Shown: positions 23,323 to 48,780 of the stretch, one piece after another
How the letters are laid out: each line of letters begins with the position of its first letter
How positions within the stretch are numbered: position 1 is the stretch's first letter
NCBI GenBank assembly: GCA_965223665.1
Contig: OZ245011.1
Span: forward strand, 2,208,001-2,272,000
Direction of reading: 5' to 3'
Length of the DNA stretch: 64,000 bases
Source: Nitrospinaceae bacterium
Lineage (GTDB): Bacteria > Nitrospinota > Nitrospinia > Nitrospinales > Nitrospinaceae
Notes under the pieces: generated by a model
The model's database searches: none
Seen by the model: the letters and a program-made list of their open reading frames with translations, nothing else
Told to the model about the DNA's origin: nothing
Made by a program: the position numbers and the translations under genes

Positions 23323-23475
23323 AATTAATTATTCAAGATCACTTAAACTTCCTGTACTCACCGCCCATGATCCCCAACCGGCACCCGGAGGTAACTAAAC
23401 TATTCAAAAAGTTTCTGAAGAACCCGCACTCGCCACCGAACATCGCAAATAAATTTTCCCAATGGCCGGGGGCCA

Positions 23476-23871
23476 TTAGTCTTTGCGTTTTTCGAGTTTT
23501 TTGACTTTTTCGCGCAGGACGGAAATTTCGGAAGAGAGGTTGCGGATCATTTCCAGCGCTTCTTTGATGGCGATTCCATCGGGATGAATCACGTTGCCCG
23601 GGAGGGCATTTTTTTCAATTTCCATGACTCCCCGACCGGTCAGCATCCAGTCAAGTGATACTTTACGCGAGACGCAGAACGCCACGATGGTGTCTGTGGG
23701 AAAGTAATCCTGCTCTTCATAATTTTTGATACTTTGCCGAGAGATCCCGAATTCTCGCGCCATATGAGCCTGTTTCAGGTCTTCCACACCCAGGACCTGC
23801 CCCACCCGCTTGGCGATGACCGCAAACGGCTTAAAAACCTTCTTGTGCTGCTGTAAATTTTTATTTGACAT
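23476..23871 (-). CDS. Phage CI-like HTH repressor with C-terminal coiled coil
   Basis: QAHMAREFGISRQSIKNYE HTH; VSLDWMLTGRG.M. Confidence 0.85.
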   Translation of the reverse strand: MSNKNLQQHKKVFKPFAVIAKRVGQVLGVEDLKQAHMAREFGISRQSIKNYEEQDYFPTDTIVAFCVSRKVSLDWMLTGRGVMEIEKNALPGNVIHPDGIAIKEALEMIRNLSSEISVLREKVKKLEKRKD

Positions 23872-23893
23872 ATGTCAGGTTTTAATTTACATT
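23865..23893 (+). promoter_or_regulatory. Sigma70-like promoter overlapped by a 12-bp perfect palindrome (candidate operator)
   Basis: TTGACA(23865)-17 nt-TACATT(23888); TGACATATGTCA at 23866-23877. Confidence 0.65.
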
Positions 23894-24354
23894 GCTCTCG
23901 TAGGCACATTGCCCCGGAGGACGCGGACGAAATGGAAAATCCCGACAGTATCACAATTCCGGATTCCAAACAAGGTTCCCAACCTGGCGGTTGGCAGCGT
24001 GATGCTGGCCACTCGCCGTGGCGGCAGAATTTATTCGCGATGTTCGGAGGTAAATACAAAATACTCTGAAAATTTTCGGAGAGTTTACTTTCCATTGATA
24101 AAACTCCCGGGTCGCGAGGACAACTCTATTTTCCATGGACCTGTGGCATGTGCCGAGCACTCAAAAATTTTTTAATAATAAAGTTAGCCTTTAGGAAAAA
24201 ATTTCCCTGCCGGCATAAAGCCTGCCGGTCTCATCTCCCTGGTGGGGGTTTTTCACCCTCCCGGAACTCCCGCCGGGGAGGCTTTAAAAATTAAGAATGA
24301 ATCAGTGAAAAGATTCTGATGATCTCGTTTGAAAGTAAATAAAGGAGCATCCGT

Positions 24355-24729
24355 ATTCACGACTTTGACACATACCAAACCCAGGTGCAGCAACGAATCG
24401 ACCAGATCGGTCTGGTGGAACCACATGAAGTGGCCGCACCGGATGCCATTTTGCCGCAACTTAAAAAACTGGTTTCGTTATGGAATGAAGTGGAGGACTT
24501 TCACCGCATTGCTGAAGACAATTTTGATGAAGACGATATTTACACCGCCCTCACCGCCATCGCCATAGGCTTTGATGAAGTGGGGAACCAATGCATCGAC
24601 GCCTGCGAGCAGATTGCGCTGATACGGGACCAGATTCAGAACCACCAGGGCCACATGTGCGCTGAATATAACGAGGGCACTCGCCTGTCTCAACAGGAGG
24701 ATGAATGGGAACAGAGACATTACTATTAA
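24355..24729 (+). CDS. Acidic hypothetical protein; start uncertain (ATT 24355 or GTG 24385)
   Basis: AAGGAG lies 7 nt before an in-frame ATT; ORF track gives 24385..24729. Confidence 0.6.
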   Translation: MHDFDTYQTQVQQRIDQIGLVEPHEVAAPDAILPQLKKLVSLWNEVEDFHRIAEDNFDEDDIYTALTAIAIGFDEVGNQCIDACEQIALIRDQIQNHQGHMCAEYNEGTRLSQQEDEWEQRHYY

Positions 24730-24803
24730 GAGTTGTTCTGGGTGGCATTACCGGACTGTTAGTGTGGATTTTTTGGGACGAAATTGAGGAGTTGTTTCGA
24801 TGA
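24705..24803 (+). CDS. 32-aa single-TM peptide
   Basis: AGGAGG RBS; MGTETLLLRVVLGGITGLLVWIFWDEIEELFR*. Confidence 0.55.
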   Translation: MGTETLLLRVVLGGITGLLVWIFWDEIEELFR

Positions 24804-24901
24804 ATATTCAATGGACGCTGCTGCTTCTTGGCACTCTATGGTGTTTCGCCCTTTCCCTGTGGGCGTGGAAGCGGTTGTGGGACATCGTGTCAAGGCCCTG
24901 A
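24800..24901 (+). CDS. 33-aa single-TM peptide
   Basis: ATGA overlap with the previous ORF; MNIQWTLLLLGTLWCFALSLWAWKRLWDIVSRP*. Confidence 0.5.
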   Translation: MNIQWTLLLLGTLWCFALSLWAWKRLWDIVSRP

Positions 24902-25284
24902 TCCTTTAAGCTTGCGGTACAGGCTTCCGTTAGTTCGAGAAGGGTTGTCTGCTCAATAATATTGGGTCGAAAGCGAACCAGGGTGGGGCCAGTGGGGTTT
25001 ACGCAGGCGTGCGAGTTTCCCCCGAGCAAACCCTCGCGAAAGACAACCAACAAGCCTACAACTTTTTCGAGATATCAGCTAGCCATAATGAAAGAACAAA
25101 ACAATAAATTAAAAATAAAAAGCAAATGCGTTCCCTCTTTTCTAAAGAGAGTTAGGGTGATTCACCTTCAGGGGTCTTCACTTATAAAAATAATTTATTC
25201 TTTCAGCAAGAATGATGACACGCGTTTTTTTAAGCGCAAATTTAATTTTTCTAAATTTTCAAAACAAAAAAATCATCTCTTTTT

Positions 25285-25575
25285 ATGGAGCCCGGCCACA
25301 TGATCTTCGAGTGCAAAGTATTTTCAGCCCAAGGCGAGTTGAAACAAGTATTGGACCCGGAACGAATTATCAAAAAACATTGGGAAGGATTTTGGTTAGG
25401 CGAAGGACCCAGCGATAACCGAAACTTTCCCCTGCGAAACTGCGAATTATGCCAGGAGGAATACAAACCCACATCCAGCACTCAGAAAATTTGTCTCACA
25501 GAAGCGTGCCGGGTTCGGCTCCGCCGATTGAACCGCAAACGCGCCCAACTGCGCAAACAACAGCAACTGAATTAA
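25285..25575 (+). CDS. Small Cys-containing (Zn-ribbon-like) protein upstream of the integrase
   Basis: CxxC...QKIC...C motif and basic tail. Confidence 0.65.
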   Translation: MEPGHMIFECKVFSAQGELKQVLDPERIIKKHWEGFWLGEGPSDNRNFPLRNCELCQEEYKPTSSTQKICLTEACRVRLRRLNRKRAQLRKQQQLN

Positions 25576-25582
25576 AAAATAA

Positions 25583-26713
25583 ATGCCGCAACATCAATTG
25601 AAACAGGATGTGGTACCATGGGGTCATCCAATGAACCACAAAGCTTGCCCTTATAACGATAAGGAGGGTGAGCCCATGAGAATGCGATTGAAAGGAAACC
25701 GCTGGTACGCGGCGTTCCGATGGAAAGGCCAATGGCGCGGCGATTCGCTGGAAGCGTTTGCACACCAAACGATGAAAGCCCAGATGAACCTCGGCCGCCT
25801 GATAGAAAGACTGGAGAGAGGAGACGACCCCAAAATCACCAAAAAGCCGATTGCCTCGGCTCAGAAATTGTACGCAGAGCAGATCCGGCATCGGTCCCAG
25901 TCCGTCAAGTTACGCAGCACATCGATTTTAAAACTGCACATCATTCCTTTTTTCGGTGAGACTCCGTTTGAAAAAGTCCCCCCCGACATGGTTGCCCACT
26001 ATAAGGAAAAACGGGAAGCCAGCGGCACCACGCAGAGTACGCTGCAAAAAGAGTTGCGCGTGCTGAAAGAAGTCATGCGCCTGGCAATAAAAGATTGGGA
26101 AATACCGACCGCCAGAGAAAGTGCGCGGATGGTTTTCAAGAATCCCGGAAAGACGCCGCAACAAGTCCTGCAGCTGGCGGATCTGAAGCACGCCGCACCG
26201 TGGGTGCCAAAGCAATCCGCAAGGTACGGAGAACAATATTTAAGAGCCTTCTGGTTTATGGCCTTCACCGGATTGGACGCGTCCGACGTATTGAAAATCA
26301 CCCCCGGGCATATCAAGAACGGATGGATAGAAGGCAAACGCGGAAAAAATAAGAAACCCTATTTCATTTATATCTCCCGATCATTACATGGGTTGATCGA
26401 GTCCATGCCCAGTCCACTGACCGAGGATCAGCCCTATCTGACCGGCATCAAAAGCAATCCCCTGTGCAAGGCGATCAAGCGAGCGTTTGTGAAAGCCGGG
26501 CTGGACTGGGCCAATACCAAAAGCCTGCGACACTTTTTTGCGTCGTACCTGCACAATGCCGGGTTGCCGAAGCAAGTCATCGCCGAAGCCGTGGGGCACG
26601 CCGAGAACTCGAAATGCACCCCGGTGTATTTACATTTATATAAAGATAACCTGAAGGCCGCATTTGAAGTCTTCGACCAGACCGTCGACCCCATGCTGCC
26701 ATTCGAAAAATGA
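25583..26713 (+). CDS. Tyrosine recombinase/integrase with atypical active-site motifs
   Basis: TLQKEL.VLK core-binding helix; FTGLD, KSLRHFFAS, VGHA, VY; true start may be ATG 25676 after AAGGAGG. Confidence 0.85.
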   Translation: MPQHQLKQDVVPWGHPMNHKACPYNDKEGEPMRMRLKGNRWYAAFRWKGQWRGDSLEAFAHQTMKAQMNLGRLIERLERGDDPKITKKPIASAQKLYAEQIRHRSQSVKLRSTSILKLHIIPFFGETPFEKVPPDMVAHYKEKREASGTTQSTLQKELRVLKEVMRLAIKDWEIPTARESARMVFKNPGKTPQQVLQLADLKHAAPWVPKQSARYGEQYLRAFWFMAFTGLDASDVLKITPGHIKNGWIEGKRGKNKKPYFIYISRSLHGLIESMPSPLTEDQPYLTGIKSNPLCKAIKRAFVKAGLDWANTKSLRHFFASYLHNAGLPKQVIAEAVGHAENSKCTPVYLHLYKDNLKAAFEVFDQTVDPMLPFEK

Positions 26714-26809
26714 GAGGACGAATAGTGAAAAAATAGATTCAGAAAATTCTAATTAAGCTTAAAGAGGTGAACAAAATAAACTCAATCGGCGACCAGATTT
26801 TTAGAGAAA

Positions 26810-27494
26810 GCTCCATCTCGTCGAAGATGAGACGGATGAAGGGTGGCCGGACAACGTCAGGATGGAACGAGGAAATGGGAAAAGAACTTCAATTTAATTC
26901 TAAGATTTACAAAATTTAAAAAATGTTCACTCTTTTAGAAAAAAAAGTAAGCGGAAAACGATGTGCTCCCTCTTTCCCAACCTGGCGGTTGGAGGCAAGA
27001 AAAATTTTCGAAAAGTTTCTGATGATTCTGTCATCTTAGAAATTTACCGAAAATGAATTTTACTGGCAGGCGTTGGCCTGCGGGCTGGGGGGATTGACCT
27101 CCAGGGTTTTTATAAAGTAAGAATGAAGAAAATCCTTCTAGCCGCGGTCCCCGACAGCTGTGGGATTCACATTCAAGAGAAGAAATTTTTATGGGAAAAG
27201 ACGATGCGCTCCTTCTTTTTAGAGAAAGCTCCATCTCATCGAAGAGGAGACTGGCGAAGCCGGGCCGGACACCGTCCGGATGGAGCGTTGAAAGTGGAAA
27301 TAAGAAGGGGACTTCAAACGGGTTGGACATTCCATTGAATCAAAAATTTAAAGAAGAGTTCTGGAAAACGGTATTTTTAAAAACCGCAACAAACAAATTA
27401 AAAAAAATTTGTCCGTTACCAACTTTTTAGGAAATGCTCCATCTTATCAAAGATAAGACAGGCGAAGCCCGGCCGGACAACATCCGGATGGAGT
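26810..27494 (+). repeat. Three dispersed copies of a 59-nt multi-hairpin element (26810-26868, 27228-27286, 27436-27494)
   Basis: GCTCCATC...GATGGAGC-type outer stem with internal hairpins; same length in all three copies. Confidence 0.85.
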
Positions 27495-27685
27495 AGAAAA
27501 AATCGAAAAATATCACGAACAACCTTAATAGCTCTAAAGAAAAACACCTTGGGAGAGGGAAAAGCCAGCAACAAACTAGAAGTTACCTGACAAAAAAAGC
27601 GACTTTCTGAATAAAATTAAGGGTAGAGAAATAGGAGAGTTTCCAAGTAACCATAAGGATCAAATAGAATCGGTACAAAGAGAAG

Positions 27686-28331
27686 AGGAAGGTGACGTTT
27701 GGATCGGTGACGAGAAGTGTTGACCGAATGTGAGCCAAGTATAAACATGGCTTCCTGAATAAACCCAAATCGTGGATAATGGTGATAATTTTCAAATATT
27801 ACTTAGCCATCAAAGAGAAACTGGGCAAAGACTATAGGAAGGTGACGTTTGGATCGGTGACGAGAAGTGTTGACCGAATGTGAGCCAAGTATAAACATGG
27901 CTTCCTGAATAAACCCAAATCGTGGATAATGGTGATAATTTTTAAATATTACTTAGCCATCAAAGAGAAACTGGGCAGAGACTATAGGAAGGTAACGTTT
28001 GGATCGGTGACGAGAAGTGTTGACCGAATGTGAGCCAAGTATAAACATGGCTTCCTGAATAAACCCAAATCGTAGATAATGGTGATAATTTTCAAATATT
28101 ACTTAGCCATCAAAGAGAAACTGGGCAGAGACTATAGGAAGGTGACGTTTGGATCGGTGACGAGAAGTGTTGACCGAATGTGAGCCAAGTATAAACATGG
28201 CTTCCTGAATAAACCCAAATCGTGGATAATGGTGATAATTTTTAAATATTACTTAGCCATCAAAGAGAAACTGGACAGAGACTATAGGAAGGTGACGTTT
28301 GGATCGGTGACGAGAAGTGTTGACCGAATGT
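27686..28331. repeat. Tandem array, 150-bp unit, 4 full copies plus 46 bp
   Basis: AGGAAGGT(G/A)ACGTTTGGATCGGTGACG starts at 27686, 27836, 27986, 28136, 28286; only a few substitutions between copies. Confidence 0.97.
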
Positions 28332-28392
28332 TGCCGATAGAAAAATGAGCATTCTCAAAATCGCAATAACCGGAGCAAAAACAAAGGAGGGA

Positions 28393-28436
28393 TGGCGTCC
28401 CCAGCGGGATTCGAACCCGCGTCGCCGGCGTGAAAG
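28393..28436 (-). other. att site: displaced 3' half of tRNA-Glu(TTC), left prophage boundary
   Basis: Minus strand reads CTTTCACGCCGGCGACGCGGGTTCGAATCCCGCTGGGGACGCCA (anticodon loop to CCA); no 5' half; 85 bp from the integrase stop. Confidence 0.9.
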
Positions 28437-28521
28437 TTACCCACCCCAAAAATCGACCCTTGTTTTTGATACTCTTCTACTTTTTTTGAGAATCTCAACT
28501 GCACGTTTCTCCCACGTTAGC

Positions 28522-29562
28522 CTAAAATGCCTCATTAAATGCTTGCTTCAAAGTGTCTTCATACACCCCCGGATACACCTCCGTAATCCTCGATCCGGGA
28601 GAATGCCCCAAGGCTTTTGCGATCCAATCCAAGCTGTATCCCGCATCCAACAACCGACTGGCCACATACCGCCTGAGGTCCTTCGCGGAATACTCTTTGT
28701 ACCCAATTTTTTCAAATGCCCGTTTCACTTGCTTGGCAAATAACCTGGCATCAAACCCGGGCAATATTTTTTGATCGGCTTTTAAAGGAAACGGAACCTT
28801 CTTCAATTTTTCCTGCAACCCCTTACACACCGGAACCTGAATCATCGGTTGGGATTTGTACCGACTGGATTTACTCCGAACCTTTTTGATCAATCCATCC
28901 TTGAAATGACCTTTCTCCAACTGCTCAATGTCTTTCGGTTCCATCCCGGTATAGGCCATGATCCAAAACCCGATTAAACTTTGCTCTTTCATGTGAGTGG
29001 CCGCCAGGGCAATCAGTTCCGGGGTTAACGGAGCTTTCTGAATGCTGCTCTTCTTTTGCACATAAGAATACCTGGGCAATTCCCATTTGGGCATCCCCCT
29101 ACAAATAACCGTCTTTAAAACTCTCAGTTCTTTATCTAAAGTAGATTTAACGCCAAAGGGTTTTCCGTCCTTTTGCCCCCACCGATGCACGATATAACTT
29201 TCAATCAATTCCCGGGTAATATCTTTCACATAATATTCCCCAAAGAACGGTTTGACATTAGTCTCCCAAATACTAATCCCCCGCGGATCTTTCTCCGGGT
29301 ATTTCATGGTTTTAAACTTTTTCCGGCTGGTGATGGGATCTTCACCCCGTTCCAACCGTTCCCGCAAAGCCCCCAGGTTTTTTAACGCTTTCCAGGGTTC
29401 TTTTTCGTAGGCATCTAAAGACACCTCAATCTTTCGACCCTTGAAACGGAAATTAGAGACCCACTTGCCGTCCTTAAGACGCATCATCATAGGCTCACCC
29501 CCACTATTTAAAAAAGGATGGGATGATTTTAACACAGACTGTTTTGGGTCTCTTAATTCCAT
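28522..29562 (-). CDS. Prophage tyrosine integrase with atypical active-site motifs
   Basis: STLDKELRVLK; YTGME, KDLRRYVAS, LGHS, ITEVY; adjacent to att; related to 25583..26713. Confidence 0.88.
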   Translation of the reverse strand: MELRDPKQSVLKSSHPFLNSGGEPMMMRLKDGKWVSNFRFKGRKIEVSLDAYEKEPWKALKNLGALRERLERGEDPITSRKKFKTMKYPEKDPRGISIWETNVKPFFGEYYVKDITRELIESYIVHRWGQKDGKPFGVKSTLDKELRVLKTVICRGMPKWELPRYSYVQKKSSIQKAPLTPELIALAATHMKEQSLIGFWIMAYTGMEPKDIEQLEKGHFKDGLIKKVRSKSSRYKSQPMIQVPVCKGLQEKLKKVPFPLKADQKILPGFDARLFAKQVKRAFEKIGYKEYSAKDLRRYVASRLLDAGYSLDWIAKALGHSPGSRITEVYPGVYEDTLKQAFNEAF

Positions 29563-29608
29563 TGATTTGCTTGAAACTCCTGCTTAATCCGGAAACCAGA
29601 AAAAAGAT

Positions 29609-29866
29609 TTATCCAACCGGCGATTCTGCTGCAACGGGTGGAAGAGATTCGAGGTCCAAATAAAACTCTTCCCCTACTTTTGGCAATTCACCTTTGTAAT
29701 GATGCTTATCCATGGAAAAGTTTAACGTTCCCGACGGCGTGAACTTCCAAAACAAGGAATTCTCATGGTTCTTGTCATTGTTGTGAAACACAGCGGACAT
29801 TTTACAAATCCAACCGTGCCGATGTTCTTCCACAGAATCACAAACAAACTTGCAACGCGTTTTCAT
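29609..29866 (-). CDS. Small phage protein (R.KF.C...EN..FW..TPSG.L family)
   Basis: GGAGG RBS; paralog of the neighbouring gene. Confidence 0.8.
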   Translation of the reverse strand: MKTRCKFVCDSVEEHRHGWICKMSAVFHNNDKNHENSLFWKFTPSGTLNFSMDKHHYKGELPKVGEEFYLDLESLPPVAAESPVG

Positions 29867-30120
29867 AATTCCTCCTTTTCATTTAATGGATTATCCATTG
29901 GGGTGATGTCGACATAATATTCGTCCCCCACCGTTGGGAGTTCGCCTTTGTAATGCGATGTTTCTGGACAAAACTCTAAGGTGCCTGGAAAATTGTAATT
30001 CACGAATTTATAATTTACATGTTTTATATAACGTTCCGGGTGGACCGGTTTGAACTCAACCTTCACATTATGTATGCGGCGACTAACTTCTACACACTTC
30101 ATTAAAATTCGAGCTTTCAT
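29863..30120 (-). CDS. Small phage protein, paralog of 29609..29866
   Basis: Shared GTL.F.....HYKGELP.VG.E.Y.D. Confidence 0.8.
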   Translation of the reverse strand: MKARILMKCVEVSRRIHNVKVEFKPVHPERYIKHVNYKFVNYNFPGTLEFCPETSHYKGELPTVGDEYYVDITPMDNPLNEKEEL

Positions 30121-30422
30121 TCGCTCTCCTGTTTTACGCGGACGGCATCGATCTCTTCATCCAACCCTTTTTGCTCTTTCAGTTCTCTGTTCTTCAAGTC
30201 CAATAACCACTGGGGACAATAAAACCCGTCGGACTTTTCAGAAATCCTTTGCTCGGGAAACCACATCCGCCATTGCCGGCGCTCTCCCTGAGAGTTTTTC
30301 AACTGAACCAACAGGTTGATGCCCTTCCCTTTGATCTCAATTTTTTCCGCATCGATTAATCTGAAATAAATGGTTCGCTTTTTCGTTTTTTTACTTTTGA
30401 TTTTTGTTTTTGTTGAAACCAT
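30117..30422 (-). CDS. Hypothetical phage early protein
   Basis: ATGA overlap with the downstream gene; WFP...I......F.CP.WL. Confidence 0.7.
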   Translation of the reverse strand: MVSTKTKIKSKKTKKRTIYFRLIDAEKIEIKGKGINLLVQLKNSQGERRQWRMWFPEQRISEKSDGFYCPQWLLDLKNRELKEQKGLDEEIDAVRVKQESE

Positions 30423-30445
30423 TTCAAATACTATTCGCTCCCAGA

Positions 30446-30676
30446 TTAAAGACGGCCCGGCGTTTCCGGGAGGGTGAGAAACGCCGGGCCCAAGAGCCCA
30501 TCCAAATAAACAGGGGCCTCAATATTTCTGAAATAAAAGTTTTCCATTTTGTATTCAGTACCAAAAGCATCCGCCGCCCAGGCAATGACAAGGACAATAG
30601 AAAGCCAAAACACAATCAATAAAATCAGGGGCCAAAACAAATCATGAAAAGGATCCTGAGGTTTTTGGTTACACAT
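30446..30676 (-). CDS. Hypothetical small membrane protein
   Basis: One TM segment; in the leftward early operon. Confidence 0.5.
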   Translation of the reverse strand: MCNQKPQDPFHDLFWPLILLIVFWLSIVLVIAWAADAFGTEYKMENFYFRNIEAPVYLDGLLGPAFLTLPETPGRL

Positions 30677-30881
30677 TGATTTCCCCCGCGGCGGGGCTCC
30701 GTAAATAAGAAACCCGGATTACCGATGCCTTGAGGAGGTAAGCAATAATCCGGGCCGAGGAGAATTTGATTTCAAATGCAAAGGCTGAAATCAAAAAAAT
30801 ACCCAAGAAAGTGAGGGTTACGGGTCCCTTCTCGCTTGGGCAACGTAATTGATTGAAATTTTGAAATATGGTAGTGTGCAT
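30669..30881 (-). CDS. Hypothetical protein, first gene of the leftward operon
   Basis: GGGGA RBS; position next to the leftward promoter. Confidence 0.45.
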   Translation of the reverse strand: MHTTIFQNFNQLRCPSEKGPVTLTFLGIFLISAFAFEIKFSSARIIAYLLKASVIRVSYLRSPAAGEINV

Positions 30882-30987
30882 AGTTCCCCGTAATTAGTGT
30901 TTGAACTAGCGTGATTCCCTATACGAAAAATTCGTTAGGGCTTACCACCCAAACCCGATCCATACTTGAAATTAGGTGGTATACGCG

Positions 30988-31037
30988 AATATATTCCTAT
31001 CACGAATAACTGTCAAGAAAATATTCGTAAATGAATA
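30988..31037 (-). promoter_or_regulatory. Leftward sigma70-like promoter with TATTC-N6/7-GAATA candidate operators
   Basis: Minus strand TTGACA(31016-31011)-17 nt-TATATT(30993-30988); palindromes at 30992-31008, 31022-31037 and 31183-31204. Confidence 0.6.
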
Positions 31038-31483
31038 AAAAAACTGAGAACTACAGTAACCCTAATATGGGAAAAATCATTTCTGAAATCCGCGGAAGCC
31101 TTAAACAAGAAGAGTTTTGCGAGATCATAGGAACTACCCAGGGTAATCTATCGAAAATTGAAAAAGGAATGGTCCCTAGCTTAGATATTCTTATACGAAT
31201 ATCTGAGTATGGTCAGGTAAGCATTAATGATCTCTATAAGGGAATTAACAAGAAATATCGGAGTAACCCTCTTGATTCGGCGCACCATGAAAAGATAGAA
31301 TCGGAAGACGTTGATAAATGGTATGTTGAAGGTCCACAGGGGGAAGAAATGCGGAATTTTATGGAGCGGTTGGTCGATAAACTGAGTGAAGCCAATGTCA
31401 AGATTAATGAATTAGAGAAGGAAAACGCCCACCTTAAGGAAGAATTGGCTAAAGCGAAAAAGCAAAATTTCGCCCAGGGTTGA
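31031..31483 (+). CDS. Prophage repressor, XRE HTH with C-terminal coiled coil
   Basis: LKQEEF..IIG.TQ.NLSKIEKG..PS; divergent from the early operon. Confidence 0.85.
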   Translation: MNKKTENYSNPNMGKIISEIRGSLKQEEFCEIIGTTQGNLSKIEKGMVPSLDILIRISEYGQVSINDLYKGINKKYRSNPLDSAHHEKIESEDVDKWYVEGPQGEEMRNFMERLVDKLSEANVKINELEKENAHLKEELAKAKKQNFAQG

Positions 31484-31590
31484 CGGCCATTACCCCCAGG
31501 AAAACCGTTGTAAAATCAACCACCCCCAAATCCGCACAAGTGATTGATATTCGGACGAGATAGATTAATTTCAAATCAGGTAAAACTTCA

Positions 31591-32451
31591 ATGAAAAAGA
31601 AATTTTCAGAACGCATAGGTTTAAGCCCACCTCCCAAAATTCAAATTGATGAAATGAACGAGGTTTTAAGGAATTCTATTTGGAATTTTCTTTATGAAAA
31701 TTTTAACGACTCTTCCTCTAGTATAAAAACCAATTGGATAAAACTCGCTAAACACATCGCCGTATTATTCAGGAAAACTCCTGTTGATAATATAAGTATA
31801 AATAATTTCGATTGTTTAAACTGGGTAAAGAGATATTTTTTTAGTCTTAATTGGTATCAAGTTTATGACCTTTTAGAATTTTTATATGGTGAATATAATA
31901 ATATCAGAGGATATTCCTCATGTAATAAAGAAAGGTTTGTAGAGATTACCAATAAAATTTTAAAAGAAGAACTTTCTGGCTATCGTTTTATTGATGGACA
32001 ATTGGCTCCTATTTCAAATGAGACAGAAATTCAGGAAATTGAAGATTCCCTTGAAGCCACTAAAAAAAATGACTTGCACGGCGCCCAGGAGCACATTGAA
32101 AAAGCTTTAAGTTTATTTGGAAAAAAACCAGACCCCGATTATAGAAATTCTATTAAAGAAGCTATTAGTGCAGTGGAATCCGTGGCAAAACTGCTTTCGA
32201 AAAAAAGTTCTGCTGGGGTTTCTGATGCCCTAAAAACTCTACAAACCAAAATGGATTTGCATCCTGCTCTCAAGGCCGCGTTTGAAAAAATGTATGGTTA
32301 TACCAGTGATGAAGACGGAATTCGTCACGCAATCTTAGAGGAATCCGATGTGGGTTTCGATGAGGCCAAATATATGATTGTTGCATGTTCCGCTTTTGTA
32401 AATTTCCTAATTGCGAAAGCCGACTCGGCTGGATTGTTTCCAAATGAATAA
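31591..32451 (+). CDS. AbiJ-NTD4-like protein with a HEPN-like C-terminus (putative abortive infection)
   Basis: FSERIG...IQID.M...LRN.IWN; WY.VYD.LE; DYRNSIKEAISAVE; YGYTSD..GIRHA. Confidence 0.8.
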   Translation: MKKKFSERIGLSPPPKIQIDEMNEVLRNSIWNFLYENFNDSSSSIKTNWIKLAKHIAVLFRKTPVDNISINNFDCLNWVKRYFFSLNWYQVYDLLEFLYGEYNNIRGYSSCNKERFVEITNKILKEELSGYRFIDGQLAPISNETEIQEIEDSLEATKKNDLHGAQEHIEKALSLFGKKPDPDYRNSIKEAISAVESVAKLLSKKSSAGVSDALKTLQTKMDLHPALKAAFEKMYGYTSDEDGIRHAILEESDVGFDEAKYMIVACSAFVNFLIAKADSAGLFPNE

Positions 32452-32557
32452 TTCGAAGTCTGCTTTTTATATACTTACCCTGAGTTAGCACTCCTATTGA
32501 CAATCCCCCAAATTTAACATAAGGTTTTCCGATAAAACAACACTTGTTGGGGGAACC

Positions 32558-33565
32558 ATGGAAAAGCACTCACCGATTCCTGTTTTTGTTTTTATCGCCT
32601 TCCTATTTATTCCAATTTCTAATGCTTATGCAGCTTGTAACAAACCAAGTGGCATACCGCAATTTGACTCAGACTCTTATTACCAATCAGCCATTGGTAA
32701 AACTGGCGATTCGTTAAAATCCGAGTTAAATAAAATTATTAAGAAGCATCATAGACATTCTTATAGTTGCGTGTGGAATATACTTAGAGAATCGGATGAA
32801 GATCCTGATAATCCAGACAATGTAATTCTTTTATACACAGGAAGAAGCCAGGACAAATCAAGAAGAGATCAAGGTGGGAATGATCAAAACGCTTGGAACA
32901 GAGAACATGTTTGGGCCAAATCTCATGGATTTAAAAGTAAAGGGCAACATGCCCATACAGATGCGCACCACTTAAGACCTACAGATAAATCTGTTAACGC
33001 GGATAGAGGTAACAAGGATTTTGCAAACGGTGGTTCTCCCAATAATGAATGTACTTTATGTAAATCCACTTCTACAACATGGGAACCTCCTGATGCTGTA
33101 AAAGGAGACGTTGCCCGAATGATGTTTTACATGGTAGTTAGATATGAAGGAGAGGATCAATCAAGCACACCGGATTTAGAGCTTGTTGAAAGGTCAACAT
33201 TTGTTGGTTCTCCACGTTTTGGAAAACTGTGTGATTTGTACGGGTGGCATAAACAAGATCAAGTGAGTGATTGGGAAAAGCAAAGGAATTCAGTGGTTTA
33301 TTCCTGGCAGGGTAATAGCAATCCGTTTATTGATCATCCAGAGTTTGCTCAGGCAATCTGGGGTGAAAAGTGTCATGACACAGGACCAGTTGAGCCACCA
33401 GTGGACCCTGAGCCTGATCCAGAGATTCCAGATCCTGAGGTTCCTCAACCTGTACCTGACCACCCCGAACCGGAGGAGCCAAATCCCATTGACAAAGAAA
33501 AATTGGATGGAATTATCAAATCTTTAGAAGAGATTCTTGAAGAAATCCGAAAATTGAGAGAATAA
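32558..33565 (+). CDS. Secreted endonuclease I family (His-Me finger) nuclease with a Pro-rich tail
   Basis: Signal peptide; WNREHVWAKSHG, TDAHHLRP, KGDVARMMFYM.VRY, QGN.NPFIDHP. Confidence 0.9.
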   Translation: MEKHSPIPVFVFIAFLFIPISNAYAACNKPSGIPQFDSDSYYQSAIGKTGDSLKSELNKIIKKHHRHSYSCVWNILRESDEDPDNPDNVILLYTGRSQDKSRRDQGGNDQNAWNREHVWAKSHGFKSKGQHAHTDAHHLRPTDKSVNADRGNKDFANGGSPNNECTLCKSTSTTWEPPDAVKGDVARMMFYMVVRYEGEDQSSTPDLELVERSTFVGSPRFGKLCDLYGWHKQDQVSDWEKQRNSVVYSWQGNSNPFIDHPEFAQAIWGEKCHDTGPVEPPVDPEPDPEIPDPEVPQPVPDHPEPEEPNPIDKEKLDGIIKSLEEILEEIRKLRE

Positions 33566-33567
33566 CT

Positions 33568-33756
33568 ATGGCCATCTTTGAACCCTACCGCTGCCACAAA
33601 TGCTTTGAGGAGATTACCTTGGTTCAACCTCAAGCTAAGGATGGTGAGCCCAAAGGAAAAGCAAAGGTTGAATGTATATTTTGTGGATGGAATCAGGAGT
33701 ATCAACTATATAACGGGCAAAAAAATGAGGAATTAATTAATGACAAAAAAGAGTAA
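33568..33756 (+). CDS. Small Zn-ribbon protein
   Basis: CHKC...CIFC; starts 2 nt after the upstream stop. Confidence 0.55.
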   Translation: MAIFEPYRCHKCFEEITLVQPQAKDGEPKGKAKVECIFCGWNQEYQLYNGQKNEELINDKKE

Positions 33757-33922
33757 CGGAGGCAACCGAGAGGAAGTTCCATTGGAAAAAATTGTGATTT
33801 CGAATATGTATAGTATAGAGGGAATAATCAATTTGCTGGTGAAGAAAGAGATAATCACAAAAGAAGAAGTGTTGAAGGAGATGGAACTGGTGGTGAAGGA
33901 GAAGAGAAATACTGAGTCCTAA
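33740..33922 (+). CDS. Small hypothetical protein
   Basis: GAGGA RBS; IINLLVKK.IITKEEVL. Confidence 0.6.
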   Translation: MTKKSNGGNREEVPLEKIVISNMYSIEGIINLLVKKEIITKEEVLKEMELVVKEKRNTES

Positions 33923-34216
33923 AAATGGTTTGAAGGTTATACATTCACTAACGGAGGGCTGCTTTCGACCCAAAGCGAACATTTCCCAGAGATCTGCTTA
34001 ATGATTTGGCAACAACCCATCCCTAAGTTATGGATCCACTCAAGCCGCAGTTTGATGAAGAAATCGGTCAAGCTTTCAGGGAAAATTAATATGCCAATTT
34101 TTTCTTGATTACTTATACCCATTGGAATAGGCTTGGGGAAAACCACGAATAAAAGATGTGGTGGCTATCGACCCAAAGCAGACATTAGGCCATTAACATG
34201 AGGTGGAAACGAAGGC

Positions 34217-35380
34217 ATGAAAGAAATTATTACTAAATCCACATCACGAGTGACGGCTCAAGTTTCCGATATTGCTCTTAGGGAGACTATTACTACACGC
34301 TTGATATTTCGTCCCATCATAATAGACAATCCCAATAATCGTGAAGCTTCTATAAAGGGTAATTTTCTATTTCAAAGAAAATCGAAAAACTCTCAATGGG
34401 AAGATTTTGAAACTACCCCTTTATCTAAGCTTAAAAGTGGGGAAGGTTTTAAGCTTGAACTTAAGTCTAGTGAATTACTTAAATTAGTAGATGAGATTAA
34501 ACCTTTATATGATCTCCATAAAAATGAAGGTGTTCCCAGAGGTCAAAAGAAATTCGTTCGCGCAACCCCACAACTTGAACAACTAGCATCTCTTACTGAT
34601 GATGATATTTCCAATTATTTAGATGCTAATACTACGATTGGTGCAACATTATTAACAAAACTATTAAATTGGGCTATAAACCTCGATGATCCAACCCCTC
34701 TAATCGAACGATTGGTTGAGCTTAATCCTAAATCTCTTGAAAAATTAAATGCTGCAGTGGGGCTGCAAAGTCTAAAAACTGCACTCGCTACTTGGCAGAA
34801 AAACGTGTGCAATTCAGATGAAGAATTTTGGCAGAAGACTTTAACAGAACATTCATTCGTACTAGAGCAAGCATTTTCATGGCCAACTTCAATTGTCAAA
34901 GGAAAGGCATATGTAAGTGGAAAGTCTGTATTTAACACAGGCGGTAATCTAGTAGATTTTTTGATGAAAAACAGCCTAACTCAAAGTGCTGCCCTTATTG
35001 AAATTAAAACACCTTCAACAAATTTAGTGGGACCTGAATATCGTACAGGAATTTACAATATATCAAGTGAGTTATCTGGCTCGATAATGCAAATTTTGAA
35101 TTATAAGCATTCATTGCAAGAAGACTTCACCATTTTAACAAAAGAGACACCTGATCTTTTCGATTCTTTTAATCCACAGTGTGTAGTAATAGTCGGTAAT
35201 ACTGGGAACGAACTAGATAATCAAAATAAGACGAAGTCATTCGAGCTATATCGCCATCAGTTCCAAAGTGTAACAATAATCTCATACGATGAATTGTTTC
35301 AAAAAATTAAAAACCTTATTAGATTACTGGAAAATCCTATTGAAAATGAAAGTTTTGACGAAGCTGAAATTCCTTTTTAA
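34217..35380 (+). CDS. sduA: Shedu anti-phage nuclease (DUF4263)
   Basis: EEFWQ..L, VDFL, LIEIKTP, ELSG.I.Q...YK, SFELYR, V.IISYDEL..K. Confidence 0.88.
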   Translation: MKEIITKSTSRVTAQVSDIALRETITTRLIFRPIIIDNPNNREASIKGNFLFQRKSKNSQWEDFETTPLSKLKSGEGFKLELKSSELLKLVDEIKPLYDLHKNEGVPRGQKKFVRATPQLEQLASLTDDDISNYLDANTTIGATLLTKLLNWAINLDDPTPLIERLVELNPKSLEKLNAAVGLQSLKTALATWQKNVCNSDEEFWQKTLTEHSFVLEQAFSWPTSIVKGKAYVSGKSVFNTGGNLVDFLMKNSLTQSAALIEIKTPSTNLVGPEYRTGIYNISSELSGSIMQILNYKHSLQEDFTILTKETPDLFDSFNPQCVVIVGNTGNELDNQNKTKSFELYRHQFQSVTIISYDELFQKIKNLIRLLENPIENESFDEAEIPF

Positions 35381-35530
35381 CATCCGCTTTTAGCCGACAG
35401 CGGTAGTTGGGCGTAATCTCTGTTGAAGGACAGATACCGACCCAAAGCGGGCATCCGTCTATATAATTATTCATGAATTTTTTTTGGAATTTTCAGGTTT
35501 TATTTCTTGAAAGAGGAGCCAAGGCGATTT

Positions 35531-36259
35531 ATGAGTGACGACAACAAAGAAGTTAAGAGCTCAAGCGGTTGTAACTGGTACGTTTTTGTTCCATCATTTT
35601 TATTCCTATTGTCGGGGACATTGTTTTTTGGGGTAAAAGAACAACCCGCAGAAATGGGTCTAGCTATTATCGCCGGAGCCATAGGAATGGCCTTTTCCAG
35701 CCTAGATAAATTTGAGTTTTTTAAAGGTGCCGGTTTCGAGGCAAAAACAAGGGAACTTCGGAAAGTCGTTACCGAGGGGAATGAAACTCTTGAAAGGCTT
35801 AGGACGGTTACACTTTTTTCGGCAGAATCAGTTTTGACGCAAGTCATAGCAATGGGCAGATGGGGGGTGGATCTAAGACTAAGAAATGAAACCAAAGCCA
35901 AGGTGGACAGAATTTTAAAGATTATAAATGCCAATCCAGATGAAATCGCCGAAGTTGAAAAGTATTGGAGGAAATACACAATCTGTGATTACATCTTCCA
36001 TATTTTAGGAGGAAGCACAGTACCGGACGGGTTTGATGGAGACGAAACAAAGGAATGGCAGGAGCTTAGGAGGGGTCTTATAGATAACCCACCCAGCCCT
36101 AAAAAATTACGAGACTTTCTAACGAAGTACGGCATGCTCGACACGGAGAGAGAAGGTTTGATAAAGGATTACGAATATTATCTGGAAAACTCTATCCACA
36201 GGGATGAAGAAGCATGGGAAAACCGAGTTGACAAGAGATTGGTTAAAAACTCTTCCTGA
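35531..36259 (+). CDS. Hypothetical protein with two N-terminal TM helices
   Basis: F..FKGAGFEA motif after the TM segments; ATG 35531 follows AAGG. Confidence 0.75.
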   Translation: MSDDNKEVKSSSGCNWYVFVPSFLFLLSGTLFFGVKEQPAEMGLAIIAGAIGMAFSSLDKFEFFKGAGFEAKTRELRKVVTEGNETLERLRTVTLFSAESVLTQVIAMGRWGVDLRLRNETKAKVDRILKIINANPDEIAEVEKYWRKYTICDYIFHILGGSTVPDGFDGDETKEWQELRRGLIDNPPSPKKLRDFLTKYGMLDTEREGLIKDYEYYLENSIHRDEEAWENRVDKRLVKNSS

Positions 36260-36405
36260 ATTATTTTCTTAAACGTCCGCTTTTGGCCCAAGGTTGAAGC
36301 GCAAGGCCAAAAAAAAAACAAACTCCCTATTCTCTCCTGGCAAAGTTTCAGATTGCACTTCCACCTATCTTGTGCCAAAATGTCAAAAATATTCCCAGAT
36401 GAGGA

Positions 36406-37701
36406 ATGATGGCAAAAAATCAAAATCAGACAGAATTTGCAAAGCTTCTTAAAAACACAGGGTTTTCCAAGGTAGAGCTTGCCGAACGCATCGGATACAA
36501 CGTCAGAACTATTTACCGGTGGGAGAAAGGAGAAACCCGCCCGAGAAAAGCCATCCTGGATCTTGTCCGTGAAGTAGCAGCTTCTTCCGGAAAAATTCGC
36601 AATCGTTCTCCCAAGGAGTTTGGTTTTAATTTCATTGATCTTTTCGCCGGTATAGGTGGACTCCGGGCAGGGTTTGAAAAAATTGGCGGGAAATGCGTTT
36701 TCACCAGTGAATGGAATGAGCCCTGTCTCCATACCTATCGGGCCAACTTCTCTTGTGATCATGAAATTGAGGGAGATATCACAAAGGTTCCTGAGCACAA
36801 GGTTCCACCTCATGATGTTTTACTGGCGGGTTTTCCCTGCCAGCCTTTTTCCATTGCGGGAGTTTCAAAGAAAAATGCCCTTGGCAGACCACACGGTTTT
36901 TTGTGTGACGCGCAGGGGACCCTGTTTTTTGATGTCGCCCGAATCATTGCGCACCACAAGCCCGCTGTCTTTCTCCTTGAGAATGTAAAAAACCTGATAA
37001 GCCATGACAAGGGAAATACCTTTCGTGTGATCAGGAAAACCCTGGAAGAGGAACTTGGTTATCATATTGACTGGCGGGTAATAAATGCCAAACCCTTTGT
37101 CCCCCAGAACAGGGAAAGAATTTTTATTGCCGGTTTCAGGGAAAATACAAGGTTTGATTTTAATGATCTGGTTTTACCCCCCGAAGAAAACTGGCCTTCT
37201 ATGGTTTCCGTTCTCCATCCGGAAGACGGCTCAGAGCCGGATGAACCACCCTATACCATTGGATCGAGGGGAAAGGTTAATCCCAAATACACCCTTTCTG
37301 AAAAATTATGGACCTATCTTCAAAACTATGCCCAAAAGCATCGCGAAAAAGGCAATGGTTTCGGGTTCGGTCTGGTTGGTAAAAACGACGTAGCCCGAAC
37401 ACTGTCAGCCAGATACTACAAGGATGGTTCTGAAGTTCTGGTACGTCAACGCGGAAGAAGGCCACGCCGCCTGACCCCCCGCGAGTGTGCCCGTCTTATG
37501 GGATTTGATCAGCCAGGGAAACCTCTCTTCCGGATCCCTGTTTCTGATACACAAGCCTATAAACAGTTTGGCAATGCAGTTGTGGTTCCGGTTGTCGAGG
37601 CCGTTGCCGGGTTTATGCTTCCTCATATCCAGCAGGTGATTCATGGAAATTCAAGGCAACAAAAACTTTTTTCTGAAGAGATGCTGTTAGAAGCCGTTTG
37701 A
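36406..37701 (+). CDS. dcm: DNA cytosine-C5 methyltransferase (Dcm/M.EcoRII-like) with N-terminal HTH
   Basis: [53 protein letters not shown]. Confidence 0.93.
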
Positions 37702-37705
37702 AGCT

Positions 37706-38176
37706 ATGGCTGACATTGTATCCCCCGAAACCCGCAGTCGCATGATGTCCGGAATAAAGGGAAAGGATACTCGCCCTGAACTTTTGATCAGAAAAGGACT
37801 TCATGCCAAAGGACACAGATACCGTCTTCATGTAAAAAGTCTTTCCGGCAAACCTGATCTGGTTTTTCCGAAATACAGGGCTGTTATTCTGGTTCATGGT
37901 TGTTTCTGGCATGGCCATAACTGCCATCTTTTTAAATGGCCATCCACAAGGAAGGATTTCTGGCGTCAAAAGATCACTGGAAATCAGAAAAATGATTCCA
38001 AAAACCTTGCAGCCCTGAAAGAAGATAACTGGAGAGTTATGACCATATGGGAATGTGCCCTCAAGGGCCGCGAACGAATTCCCCTGAATGAAATAATCGA
38101 TAAGGCAGCTGAGTGGCTGTTATCAAACAGGCTCGCAATGGAAATCAGGGGAAGAAAAAAAAGAGATCGGGAATGA
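37706..38176 (+). CDS. vsr: Very short patch repair endonuclease
   Basis: RSRMMSGIKGKDTRPE, GKPD, VHGCFWHGH, IWECAL. Confidence 0.95.
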   Translation: MADIVSPETRSRMMSGIKGKDTRPELLIRKGLHAKGHRYRLHVKSLSGKPDLVFPKYRAVILVHGCFWHGHNCHLFKWPSTRKDFWRQKITGNQKNDSKNLAALKEDNWRVMTIWECALKGRERIPLNEIIDKAAEWLLSNRLAMEIRGRKKRDRE

Positions 38177-39390
38177 AAAAAGGTTTTCTGTCCGAATATT
38201 TTGAAGGCGTTGCTGCCAAACGATTGAGTGTCGTTGAAGTTGACCCTGCCAGCTCAAACCAGCATGAATTTAATGGAGTGAAAGCCCTGAAACAACTTCT
38301 CGGACCTGAAAGGTTAAATGATATTCCTGTCCGTTTTGTCTGGCTTGGTGAAGAAAACGAAGGTTTGTCTGAAGATTCCCATGTGACCTGGTATGATTCG
38401 CGGGAAAACCATCCGACAAGATCAGAATACCGCCTTTACTTCAAGTCCAACCCGGTCATGGAAATGGCCCGTGAAGGTGATTTGCTGGTTGTTGCCAAAA
38501 GACCTGGTGGTGAACTGATGATAATTATTGCGAGTCAGGGGACTACTATAGAAAACCAGTTGATATGGCTTTTCGGAGTTTCCGTCCAGATAGGGACAGG
38601 TTTTGAGTTTCGGGAGTTGGATGAGCAACAGGATATGGAAGTTGATTTTGCTGTCCGCTTTATTCTGGAAGAACTCGGAATTGAAATTGAGGAACCGGAA
38701 GCCGACCTGTTTGACAGGTTGCTTGAACCTTTTCAGGGCATGTTCCCCAAGACTGCCGAATTTTCTGCCTTTGCAAGAAAAACCCTCTCTGATGTTTCAC
38801 CCATGGATGACCCGGACGCGGCCCTGATAGCCTGGATAGAAAGAGAGGAAAAACTTTTCAGGAGACTGGAACGACACATTGTTTCTGACCGTTTAAAGGA
38901 AGGATTTGCCGGGCCCGAGGGTGCGGATGTAGATGGCTTTATCAGTTTTTCGCTTAGTGTCCAGAATCGCCGAAAATCAAGAATGGGATACTCTCTGGAA
39001 CACCATCTTGAAGAAATATTTTGTTTGCGGGGTATCCGGTATGACAGGAATAAAGTAACTGAAAACAATTCCAAACCGGATTTTTTGTTTCCAGGACAAA
39101 CAGAATATAGGGACCAAAACTTTTCTTCCCTGAAACTTTCCATGCTGGGTGTAAAATCAACCTGCAAGGATCGATGGCGACAGGTTCTTTCCGAGGCCGC
39201 CAGAATACCGGACAAACATCTGCTTACACTGGAACCCGGTATTAGTGAGAACCAGACAAAAGAAATGATGTCCAACCGGCTTCAGCTTGTCATTCCAACC
39301 GGTCTTCATGAGACCTATCAACCTGCCCAGAAGGAATGGCTTATGAATGTAACAGAATTTATCCAACTGGTTCAGGAGCGTCAGGAATGA
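38173..39390 (+). CDS. Type II restriction endonuclease, EcoRII-like
   Basis: SNQHEF, NRRKSR.G.SLEHHL, KPDFLFP, KSTCKDRWRQ; ATGA overlap with vsr. Confidence 0.9.
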   Translation: MKKGFLSEYFEGVAAKRLSVVEVDPASSNQHEFNGVKALKQLLGPERLNDIPVRFVWLGEENEGLSEDSHVTWYDSRENHPTRSEYRLYFKSNPVMEMAREGDLLVVAKRPGGELMIIIASQGTTIENQLIWLFGVSVQIGTGFEFRELDEQQDMEVDFAVRFILEELGIEIEEPEADLFDRLLEPFQGMFPKTAEFSAFARKTLSDVSPMDDPDAALIAWIEREEKLFRRLERHIVSDRLKEGFAGPEGADVDGFISFSLSVQNRRKSRMGYSLEHHLEEIFCLRGIRYDRNKVTENNSKPDFLFPGQTEYRDQNFSSLKLSMLGVKSTCKDRWRQVLSEAARIPDKHLLTLEPGISENQTKEMMSNRLQLVIPTGLHETYQPAQKEWLMNVTEFIQLVQERQE

Positions 39391-39507
39391 AAATGATTTG
39401 ACGAACAAGAAATGATCACCCTACGCCTAATAGGACATGGGGTTTATTGTCCTTTCGCCCACGTCCCGTTAACACTACCCTTCCTTTTTTTCATCTCCGG
39501 CTTGGGC

Positions 39508-39536
39508 TTGCATCCGTAAACCGAAAGGAGTAGGAT
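39508..39536 (+). promoter_or_regulatory. Sigma70-like promoter of TPR gene 1 (copy at 42186-42214 for TPR gene 2)
   Basis: TTGCAT-17 nt-TAGGAT conserved in both duplicated upstream regions. Confidence 0.6.
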
Positions 39537-39601
39537 TTGGAGTAATTTCCGTTCTATATTATATGGGCTTAGAAATCTGTTAATCCTCATTGGAAAATTT
39601 G

Positions 39602-41788: not shown

Positions 41789-42016
41789 TAAGAAATTTCG
41801 ATACAAAAAAATATTTTGAAAAATAATTAGAATTTCATTAAAGCCATACCTTATAAACAACTTCAGCAGGAAAAAAATGACTGGCGTAACTAATTGGCTA
41901 CACTCCAGCTAATTTTCTCACCTCTCTTATTTAACTTTTGTTGGTTCTGCCAAACCTCTAATTATCTCTCCCTTTTTCAAATTCAATTTTTGTTCTGGGA
42001 AACAGCGAATATTTGA

Positions 42017-42127
42017 TTACTTCCTATCCAATTTGTTTTCTATCCGGTCGAGTTGTTTCCCAAATCGTTCATGGGATTCATCGTTGGATTTGCGGAATTC
42101 CTCAAAGACATCTTTTTCCAATCTCTC
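42017..42127 (-). pseudogene. 3' fragment of a second allele of the 44063..44302 gene
   Basis: Translates ERLEKDVFEEFRKSNDESHERFGKQLDRIENKLDRK*; upstream in-frame stop and no 5' half. Confidence 0.85.
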
Positions 42128-42279
42128 CTTTCTTCATTGCTCCAATGAACCTACCCCCTTCCCTTTTTCCACTCCCGGCTTGGGCTTGCATCCGAAAACC
42201 GAAAGGAGTAGGATTTGGATTAATTTCCTTTCTATATTATATGGGCTTAAAAATCTGTTTATTCTCATTGGAAAATTAT

Positions 42280-44046: not shown

Positions 44047-44062
44047 ACCAAAATATATTCCT

Positions 44063-48774: not shown

Positions 48775-48780
48775 TTAGAA

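Follow-up and report, generated by a model that had tools for sequence, protein, structure and literature searches.

Two tyrosine integrases lacking the first catalytic arginine, with a candidate replacement in the lysine hairpin, at a tRNA-Glu site of a Nitrospinaceae bacterium

According to Gibb et al. 2010 (PMC2943603), the first arginine of the tyrosine recombinase active site (Arg I) is conserved in 91.2% of the superfamily and the histidine of box II (His II) in 87.3%, and they do not decide whether the remaining recombinases, some 9%, are inactive or work with a different active-site geometry. Smyshlyaev et al. 2021 (PMC8138268) report that Arg I is absent from the CTnDOT, ERL and Tn5520 integrases of the IntCTnDOT subgroup, and that in the CTnDOT integrase a downstream Arg functionally replaces it; they also describe IntDes of Desulfovibrio, in which the first Arg of the catalytic pentad is shifted and His II is a Tyr. 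Here we describe two integrase genes, ORF1 and ORF2 (ORF, open reading frame), from a 64,000-nucleotide stretch of a Nitrospinaceae bacterium (contig OZ245011.1, positions 2,208,001 to 2,272,000; hereafter the window), in which Arg I is replaced by an acidic residue and His II by Lys. We consider it likely, at a probability of roughly 0.7, that both encode competent lambda-type integrases in which an Arg of the lysine hairpin takes the role of Arg I. A first-pass annotation of this DNA had proposed a rewired active site of this kind and its reading is essentially right: the motif is real, but it is less new than was implied, since the relocation principle is already published for the IntCTnDOT group, and the description of Arg I as essentially invariant was too strong given the 91.2% above.

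The codons, motifs and coordinates recorded for the two genes in that annotation are exact to the base (Table 1). Both reading frames are intact, and their products align at 34% identity over 349 columns (E 1e-54). The box I sequence is FTGLDASD for ORF1 and YTGMEPKD for ORF2, and in both genes the Tyr, Arg II, the hairpin Lys and His III of a tyrosine recombinase are present, with Arg I and His II replaced. Pfam PF00589 is matched narrowly (32.7 bits for ORF1 and 32.8 bits for ORF2 against a cut-off of 27.1), as it is by 35 of the 36 members of their clade; the PHROG family phrog_1 'integrase' is matched at E 6e-32 and E 1e-17, respectively, and ORF2 also has a weak match to PF13356 (E 0.029). 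In HMMER alignments to solved recombinases, for which the single protein and a 36-member profile served as queries, D232 of ORF1 falls on the box I Arg of XerA (4a8e, 5hxy), P2 Int (5c6k) and IntI4 (2a3v), K255 matches the Lys in the G-K-G hairpin, and K313 matches His II.

An AlphaFold2 model of ORF1 made from the 36-member alignment (mean predicted local distance difference test score, pLDDT, 90.3; predicted template modelling score 0.80) contains an N-terminal beta-sheet arm-binding domain (strands 34-59, then a helix, pLDDT >90), a helical core-binding domain and a catalytic domain, and places R253 and K255 in the loop between strands 248-252 and 259-263. The top Foldseek matches of this model are Tn1549 Int (6emy, E 2.6e-10) and full-length lambda Int (1z1b, E 4.6e-10), with alignments spanning 315-354 columns (354 for 1z1b), and the Foldseek probability is 1.00 against Tn1549 Int, lambda Int, XerA and Cre. 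By the predicted arm-binding domain, both genes would qualify as heterobivalent integrases of the lambda/Tn916 type. They resemble lambda Int and Tn1549/Tn916 Int in the modelled three-domain fold and, for ORF2, in being a phage integrase beside its own attachment (att) site, but differ from those enzymes, which carry the canonical R-K-H-R-H-Y set (R212, K235, H308, R311, H333 and Y342 in lambda Int; PMC2943603).

Relatives were gathered by word-index searches and by an exhaustive phmmer search, which gave 1583 representatives at E <= 0.001 (94 at E <= 1e-10 and 24 at E <= 1e-30); the best 150 of the 1583 were used, together with 29 proteins of a third search and 13 genes from related genomes. 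Rows of 280-500 residues were aligned with MAFFT, leaving out P0147, P0150, P0073, P0123 and L020x as incomplete or duplicate, L014x (the ortholog in the sister genome G001, a duplicate of P0001) and P0006 (identical to ORF2). A first pass on 138 rows preceded the final count on 174 rows, of which 56 have no Arg I (Arg-lost) and 118 retain it (canonical). In ORF1 numbering, position 232, where all canonical rows have the Arg, is occupied in the Arg-lost rows by Asp (46), Glu (5), Ser (4) or Tyr (1). Position 253, two residues before the catalytic Lys (Lys-2), is Arg in 56 of 56 Arg-lost rows, while canonical rows have Gln (32), Arg (21), Asp (18), Lys (10), Thr (8) or, in the rest, other residues. 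His II (313) is Lys in 53 Arg-lost rows, the exceptions being Arg, Thr and Ile, and in canonical rows it is His in 107 and Lys in 5. The catalytic Lys (255) is kept in all Arg-lost and 116 canonical rows (Arg in 2), Arg II (316) and the Tyr (349) are kept in every row of both groups, and His III (339) is kept in 53 Arg-lost rows (Gln in 3) and 117 canonical rows (Gln in 1). The acid three residues after Arg I (235) is Asp (53) or Glu (3) in Arg-lost rows, and the position is Glu (73), Asn (21), Asp (19), Thr (2) or Gln (1) in canonical ones.

Not one of the 174 rows lacks both the Arg I and the Lys-2 arginines. An Arg at Lys-2 is obligatory once Arg I has been replaced, and Lys usually replaces His II. 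At the three exceptions to the latter, positions 232, 253 and 313 read S-R-R, S-R-T and Y-R-I, so that the hairpin Arg is kept in each, and three rows reading R-Q-K have Lys at His II alongside Arg I. The first-pass annotation had suggested collecting homologs and scoring the patterns TG.[DE] and R.K; among Arg-lost rows the acid is found in 51 of 56 and R.K in 56 of 56. In the alignment of the acidic clade, every one of the 36 members has R253, K255, K313, R316, H339 and Y349. All close homologs that we found are without Arg I; none has the canonical residue. A last word-index search with the mixed alignment gave 35 matches, of which all 29 new ones were canonical, and revealed no further independent switches. 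A single-protein scan for related loci found one, in a Nitrospina metagenome-assembled genome (MAG); among deposited phages tblastn found no match to ORF2 at E 1e-5, and among deposited plasmids there was one weak match to ORF1, a Parabacteroides integrase. Clusters from the ESM Atlas were generic integrases only.

Two side observations concern the same alignment. At residue 317 (ORF1 26531-26533), which directly follows Arg II, all 118 canonical rows have His and the Arg-lost rows have Arg (26), His (24) or Asp (6), making it a fourth position that loosens with the swap. Locus L021 (G010:C78, gene at about 1248-2264) shows a third kind of active site, with Tyr at Arg I, an R-S-K hairpin and Ile at His II.

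Maximum-likelihood trees were built without the three trait columns (quick IQ-TREE, LG+G4), on 134 rows and then on 172, the latter being the 174 rows minus two with a gap in the hairpin column. Most Arg-lost proteins, including ORF1 and ORF2, fall in one starred clade. Others are starred sisters of canonical R...Q...H proteins (P0074/P0054, P0059/P0060 and P0079/P0068), P0085, P0090, P0106 and P0122 group with canonical P0072 (also starred), and canonical P0020 falls within the main Arg-lost clade. Parsimony counts 7 changes of Arg I state, of which at least 5 are forced by starred branches. In 5 of 5 phylogenetically independent pairs the hairpin Arg shifts in the same direction, and the His II Lys differs in about 3 of 5. 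An approximately unbiased (AU) test, run on 68 rows (the main clade thinned to 21, all outlying Arg-lost proteins, all R/Q rows and 6 outgroups), rejects a single clade of the 30 Arg-lost rows (log-likelihood difference 359, p 1.5e-43). Judging from these trees, the swap to D/E, R-x-K and K arose several times among close relatives. The canonical sisters that interleave with the rewired lineages share about 30-38% identity with them, have the same length and domains, and are likewise found near tRNA-Glu; unlike the rewired proteins, they keep Arg I and His II, with Gln at Lys-2 (32 rows).

The likeness to the IntCTnDOT subgroup lies in a catalytic Arg at an alternative downstream position, to which the Lys-2 Arg in 56 of 56 Arg-lost sequences points here. 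The groups differ in that the old Arg I position is acidic here (51/56) rather than Ser or Ala, in that His II is Lys (53/56), and in their hosts, the IntDOT group belonging to conjugative and mobilizable elements of Bacteroidota and the present one to prophages and islands at tRNA-Glu. IntDes, as it is described by Smyshlyaev et al. 2021 (PMC8138268), is set apart by its Tyr at His II, a residue seen in 0 of 56 Arg-lost rows. PF17293 (Arm-DNA-bind_5, the IntCTnDOT N-terminus) has no match in the whole genome, whereas the control, Bacteroides thetaiotaomicron, does match, and PF13102 (SAM_5) occurs in 2 of 36 clade members as against 15 of 36 for PF14659; judged by domain content, the present clade is not IntCTnDOT. 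The Parabacteroides plasmid integrase mentioned above, which has a strong SAM_5 domain, has Ala at Arg I, Tyr at His II and an R-Q-K that aligns with the R-G-K of ORF1, and therefore appears to have its Arg relocated to the same hairpin position. The corresponding residues of IntDOT are reportedly S259, R285 and K287, in work ascribed to Kim and colleagues (2010). No description of the acidic/Lys variant was found in the literature searched; that search did not extend to subscription papers, nor to the appendix figures and supplements of PMC8138268, which may show such a group.

The natural context of ORF2 provides a further line of evidence. Its gene end lies 85 bp from a 45-bp att core, which is a displaced fragment and not a complete tRNA gene; ARAGORN calls no tRNA in the window, and an intact tRNA-Glu (locus L013, 1500-1544) shares the exact 45-bp repeat. 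This intact gene, with tRNA-Lys after it, is found 42,804 bp rightward of the core, outside the window, and delimits an element that we call prophage B. In G001, the sister genome, nothing separates the two flanks but an unbroken tRNA-Glu/tRNA-Lys pair. This is an empty attB site, and the insertion of prophage B is therefore recent and precise. Four sequencing runs of one study, none listed as RNA, contain this DNA as metagenome contigs, and contigs bridge the junction of core and phage (X1, 28416-29191, and X2, 28407-29373); loose contig ends at 28436 enter tRNA-Glu-like sequence common to many metagenome organisms and bear neither way on excision or on the fraction of cells with the prophage. 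In light of this context, the altered enzyme ORF2 very probably still works. The first-pass annotation had placed one of the two genes beside the att site of an apparently intact prophage, which holds for the position of ORF2, given the 45-bp tRNA-Glu repeat and the empty sister site; a scan of 34 prophage B ORFs (28 in the window and 6 beyond) revealed, however, no genes for replication or lysis, and the prophage therefore cannot be called intact. The target is not peculiar to this locus. In L015 (genome G003) and L025 (the Nitrospina MAG), some 100 bp separate an acid-type integrase from a 3' fragment of tRNA-Glu with the same orientation, and in L017, L022, L023 and L024 a canonical sister stands next to an intact tRNA-Glu gene, so both layouts serve the same kind of target.

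In the mechanism that we propose, the Arg two residues before the catalytic Lys, in the beta2-beta3 hairpin (R253 in ORF1 and R229 in ORF2), would supply its guanidinium to the scissile phosphate. The acid at the old Arg I position (D232 or E208) and the conserved Asp three residues on would most likely anchor this relocated Arg, D232 and D235 holding it in the way that Arg173 of Cre is held by Glu176. Lys at His II would preserve the pocket's net charge, D/E plus Lys equalling Arg plus a neutral His, an accounting of our own, and the remaining catalytic residues (Arg II, His III, Lys and Tyr) would act as usual. ORF2 would have served as the integrase of the 42.8-kb prophage, recombining it with the 3' half of tRNA-Glu(UUC), and ORF1 as that of an older island at the same tRNA. 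As described by Gibb et al. (PMC2943603), the +3 Glu of Cre hydrogen-bonds both Arg I and the backbone amide of the catalytic Lys, and Asp215 of lambda Int bonds the backbone of the residue before K235, so that box I and the hairpin are in contact. It is the covariation, this published geometry and the CTnDOT precedent that together lead us to place the Lys-2 Arg at the Arg I site. The acid at 232 would not be indispensable, because Ser and Tyr variants occur. The suggestion of the first-pass annotation that a hairpin Arg could substitute for the lost one has thus gained a strict and repeated covariation, an argument from sequence.

Other explanations of the missing Arg I have to be weighed against this mechanism. 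That two independent inactivating mutations struck decaying integrase genes is scarcely credible, the absence of Arg I being the only point for it. Every close homolog shares the state, both frames are intact, and comparison of ORF1 with its ortholog at the same locus in G001 gives a synonymous divergence (dS) of 0.49 and a nonsynonymous divergence (dN) of 0.033, or a dN/dS of 0.067, the mark of strong purifying selection, which has kept ORF1 intact. Because the close homologs share the state and because of this ratio, independent inactivation is effectively excluded, and the view already taken in the first-pass annotation, that this is a family trait rather than decay, agrees with these data and with the 36 of 36 conservation of the other catalytic residues. 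The genes might instead encode dead, recombinase-fold DNA binders with a repressor or architectural role, comparable to YopR of SPbeta, in which case another enzyme moved the prophage. YopR does have the fold and no activity (bioRxiv 10.1101/2022.10.21.513154), and Gibb et al. raised this possibility for recombinases without Arg I (PMC2943603). We nevertheless find it highly improbable here. YopR-like inactive regulators, as described in that preprint, have lost most catalytic residues, including both Arg and both His, whereas in the present proteins only Arg I and His II are changed, in a fixed and covarying manner, and Lys, Arg II and Tyr are invariant, with His III present in 36 of 36 members of the 36-member set and 53 of 56 Arg-lost rows. 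The att-adjacent position, the tRNA-half target and the arm-binding domain are traits of working integrases, no recombinase other than ORF2 was recognised among the 34 prophage ORFs scanned, and the dN/dS of ORF1 also speaks against a dead binder.

A working enzyme could also owe its missing charge to something other than the hairpin Arg. The box II Lys (K313 in ORF1, K294 in ORF2) might supply it, with R253 fixed for other reasons, mainly as a contact to the DNA backbone or minor groove. Lys at His II is indeed far commoner in Arg-lost than in canonical rows (53/56 vs 5/118), and an Arg at Lys-2 that is common in canonical enzymes (21/118) need not be catalytic. Still, this is unlikely: the hairpin Arg is the stricter of the two (56/56 vs 53/56) and is retained in the exceptions, it differs in all five independent pairs as against about three for the Lys, and the three R-Q-K rows show Lys to be compatible with Arg I. 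A different chemistry altogether, in which the box I acid pair (D/E-x-x-D) would hold a divalent metal or an ordered water in place of the Arg I charge, draws on the conservation of that pair (D/E at 232 in 51 of 56 rows and at 235 in 56 of 56). We regard it as improbable: provided that the hairpin Arg is there, position 232 can be Ser (4 rows) or Tyr (1 row); an acid at +3 belongs to the ordinary structure of every tyrosine recombinase, according to Gibb et al. (PMC2943603); and the literature consulted showed no metal-dependent member of the superfamily.

Several points weigh against our proposal that the hairpin Arg does the work of Arg I in functioning integrases. The reach of R253 to the Arg I site is deduced from sequence comparison, and the role of ORF2 as the catalyst of the prophage insertion from its position. 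Since 21 of the 118 canonical rows share the Lys-2 Arg, it does not mark the rewired state alone, and in those rows it may serve another role. Cre, according to Gibb et al. (PMC2943603), tolerates neither Lys nor Arg at His II, which leaves the fit of Lys313 unexplained. The sign test on the independent pairs gives p 0.0625, which is the minimum for 5 pairs and alone not significant; the AU group follows the trait but was chosen with a tree already in view, and the tree model is simple (quick LG+G4) for sequences this divergent. As for ORF1, the left end of its island was not found, and blastn-short detected no second tRNA-Glu fragment in the window.

We would also mention the quite unlikely possibility that the active site is bistable, with R...Q-x-K...H and D/E...R-x-K...K as two charge-balanced layouts between which it flips repeatedly while the tRNA-Glu target is kept, the acidic/Lys layout being functionally distinct. 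If this were true, that layout would alter the chemistry or control of strand exchange (general acid/base, metal need, or relaxed overlap homology, as reported for IntDOT) and would constitute a functionally distinct catalytic class.

Table 1. Positions of the features discussed (window coordinates; residue numbers are those of each protein).
Feature	Position	Strand	Description
ORF1	25583..26713	+	376-aa tyrosine integrase of the clade without Arg I; arm-binding, core-binding and catalytic domains
ORF1 box I	26276..26287	+	D232 (GAC, 26276-26278) at the Arg I position; D235 at the Glu/Asp I position
ORF1 hairpin R253-G-K255 (KRGK)	26339..26347	+	Proposed relocated catalytic Arg, and catalytic Lys
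ORF1 box II K313-S-L-R316 (KSLRH)	26519..26530	+	Lys instead of His II; Arg II
ORF1 H339 to Y349	26597..26629	+	His III to nucleophile
ORF2	28522..29562	-	346-aa integrase of the clade shared with ORF1; integrase of prophage B (from position)
ORF2 box I	28930..28941	-	E208 (GAA, 28939-28941) at the Arg I position; D211
ORF2 hairpin R229-S-K231 (VRSK)	28870..28878	-	
ORF2 box II K294-D-L-R297 (KDLRR)	28672..28683	-	
ORF2 H320 to Y330	28573..28605	-	His III (in GH) to nucleophile
attL core	28392..28436	-	45 bp, 3' half of tRNA-Glu(UUC) from anticodon loop to CCA
Prophage B	28437..64000		Left 35.6 kb, within the window; whole element 42,804 bp, ending at the tRNA-Glu beyond the window
Tandem paralogous 85-aa ORFs	29609-29866, 29863-30120	-	Next to ORF2; common 51-nt repeat, 76% identity
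AbiJ N-terminal domain	31591-32451		Prophage B
Endonuclease I	32558-33565		Prophage B
Shedu SduA	34217-35380		Prophage B
DNA methyltransferase	36406-37701		Prophage B
Small endonuclease	37706-38176		Prophage B
Type II restriction enzyme	38113-39390		Prophage B
Large tetratricopeptide repeat (TPR) proteins (2)	39590-41788, 42013-44046		Prophage B
Module shared with G001	23441..26715		3.3 kb; CI-type repressor (23476-23871, - strand; PF07022), small ORFs and ORF1
85-nt element, three copies	26798-26882, 27216-27300, 27424-27508		Downstream of ORF1; the only three in the genome
Tandem array	27686-28331		150-bp unit, 4.3 copies, 98% identity; directly left of the attL core

Prophage B carries a CI-type repressor, a block of defence genes and a full structural module of siphovirus type, comprising a portal, a fused protease/major head protein, a head-tail joining protein, a tail terminator, a major tail protein, a chaperone, a tape measure, minor tail proteins, a J-like protein and a tail spike, with the large terminase just past the end of the window and a neck protein also outside it. 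The defence and moron block occupies the integrase-proximal part of the prophage (31591-44046; members in Table 1). The tandem 85-aa ORFs beside ORF2 have no family match, and an excision factor would fit their position. At another chromosomal place, which has no tRNA, the 3' half of tRNA-Glu recurs in a third exact copy (L011, G000:C1:1401885-1401913). The sequence to the left of this copy is similar to the right end of prophage B, and the copy may be what remains of the att site of a related element.

Some 1.7 kb separate ORF1 from the tRNA-Glu fragment, with which it is convergent. It stands at the end of a module with 81-90% nucleotide identity to G001 (L026, 15769-19706), and we read it as the integrase of an older island at this tRNA-Glu, of which the module is the remaining end. 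The 150-bp tandem array could represent amplified arm-type sites of that island. Each of its units contains three GTGAC-like words, and at this place G001 has a weakly similar stretch only (65-71%). Two of the 85-nt elements fold as a four-way, cloverleaf-like junction (z-scores -2.0 and -2.6), and their first hairpin varies between copies with its pairing apparently kept; they have no Rfam match, and ARAGORN calls no tRNA among them. Rfam yielded nothing at the gathering threshold anywhere in the window and, between 26700 and 28520, chance-level matches only, plus a tRNA-like T-arm. The left side of the window also holds families of short interspersed intergenic repeats (14537-14619, 20285-20367, 25107-25189, 26949-27105 and others), examples being the word TTCCCAACCTGGCGGTTGG and the stem-forming unit CCCTCTTTCCTAAAGAGGG.

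What is new here is a separate lambda-like lineage in which the same relocation appears to have taken place, with a fixed D/E...R-x-K...K-x-x-R triad, its apparent repeated gain among close relatives, and a natural insertion that argues for activity. For annotation, such integrases barely pass Pfam, and motif filters demanding R-H-R-Y would discard them. With a strict three-position swap and a datable, precise prophage insertion, the question becomes directly testable with few mutants, and the substrates are already defined by the tRNA-Glu attB and the attL and attR of the prophage. The clade thus offers a natural experiment, outside Bacteroidota, on the question that Gibb et al. left open.

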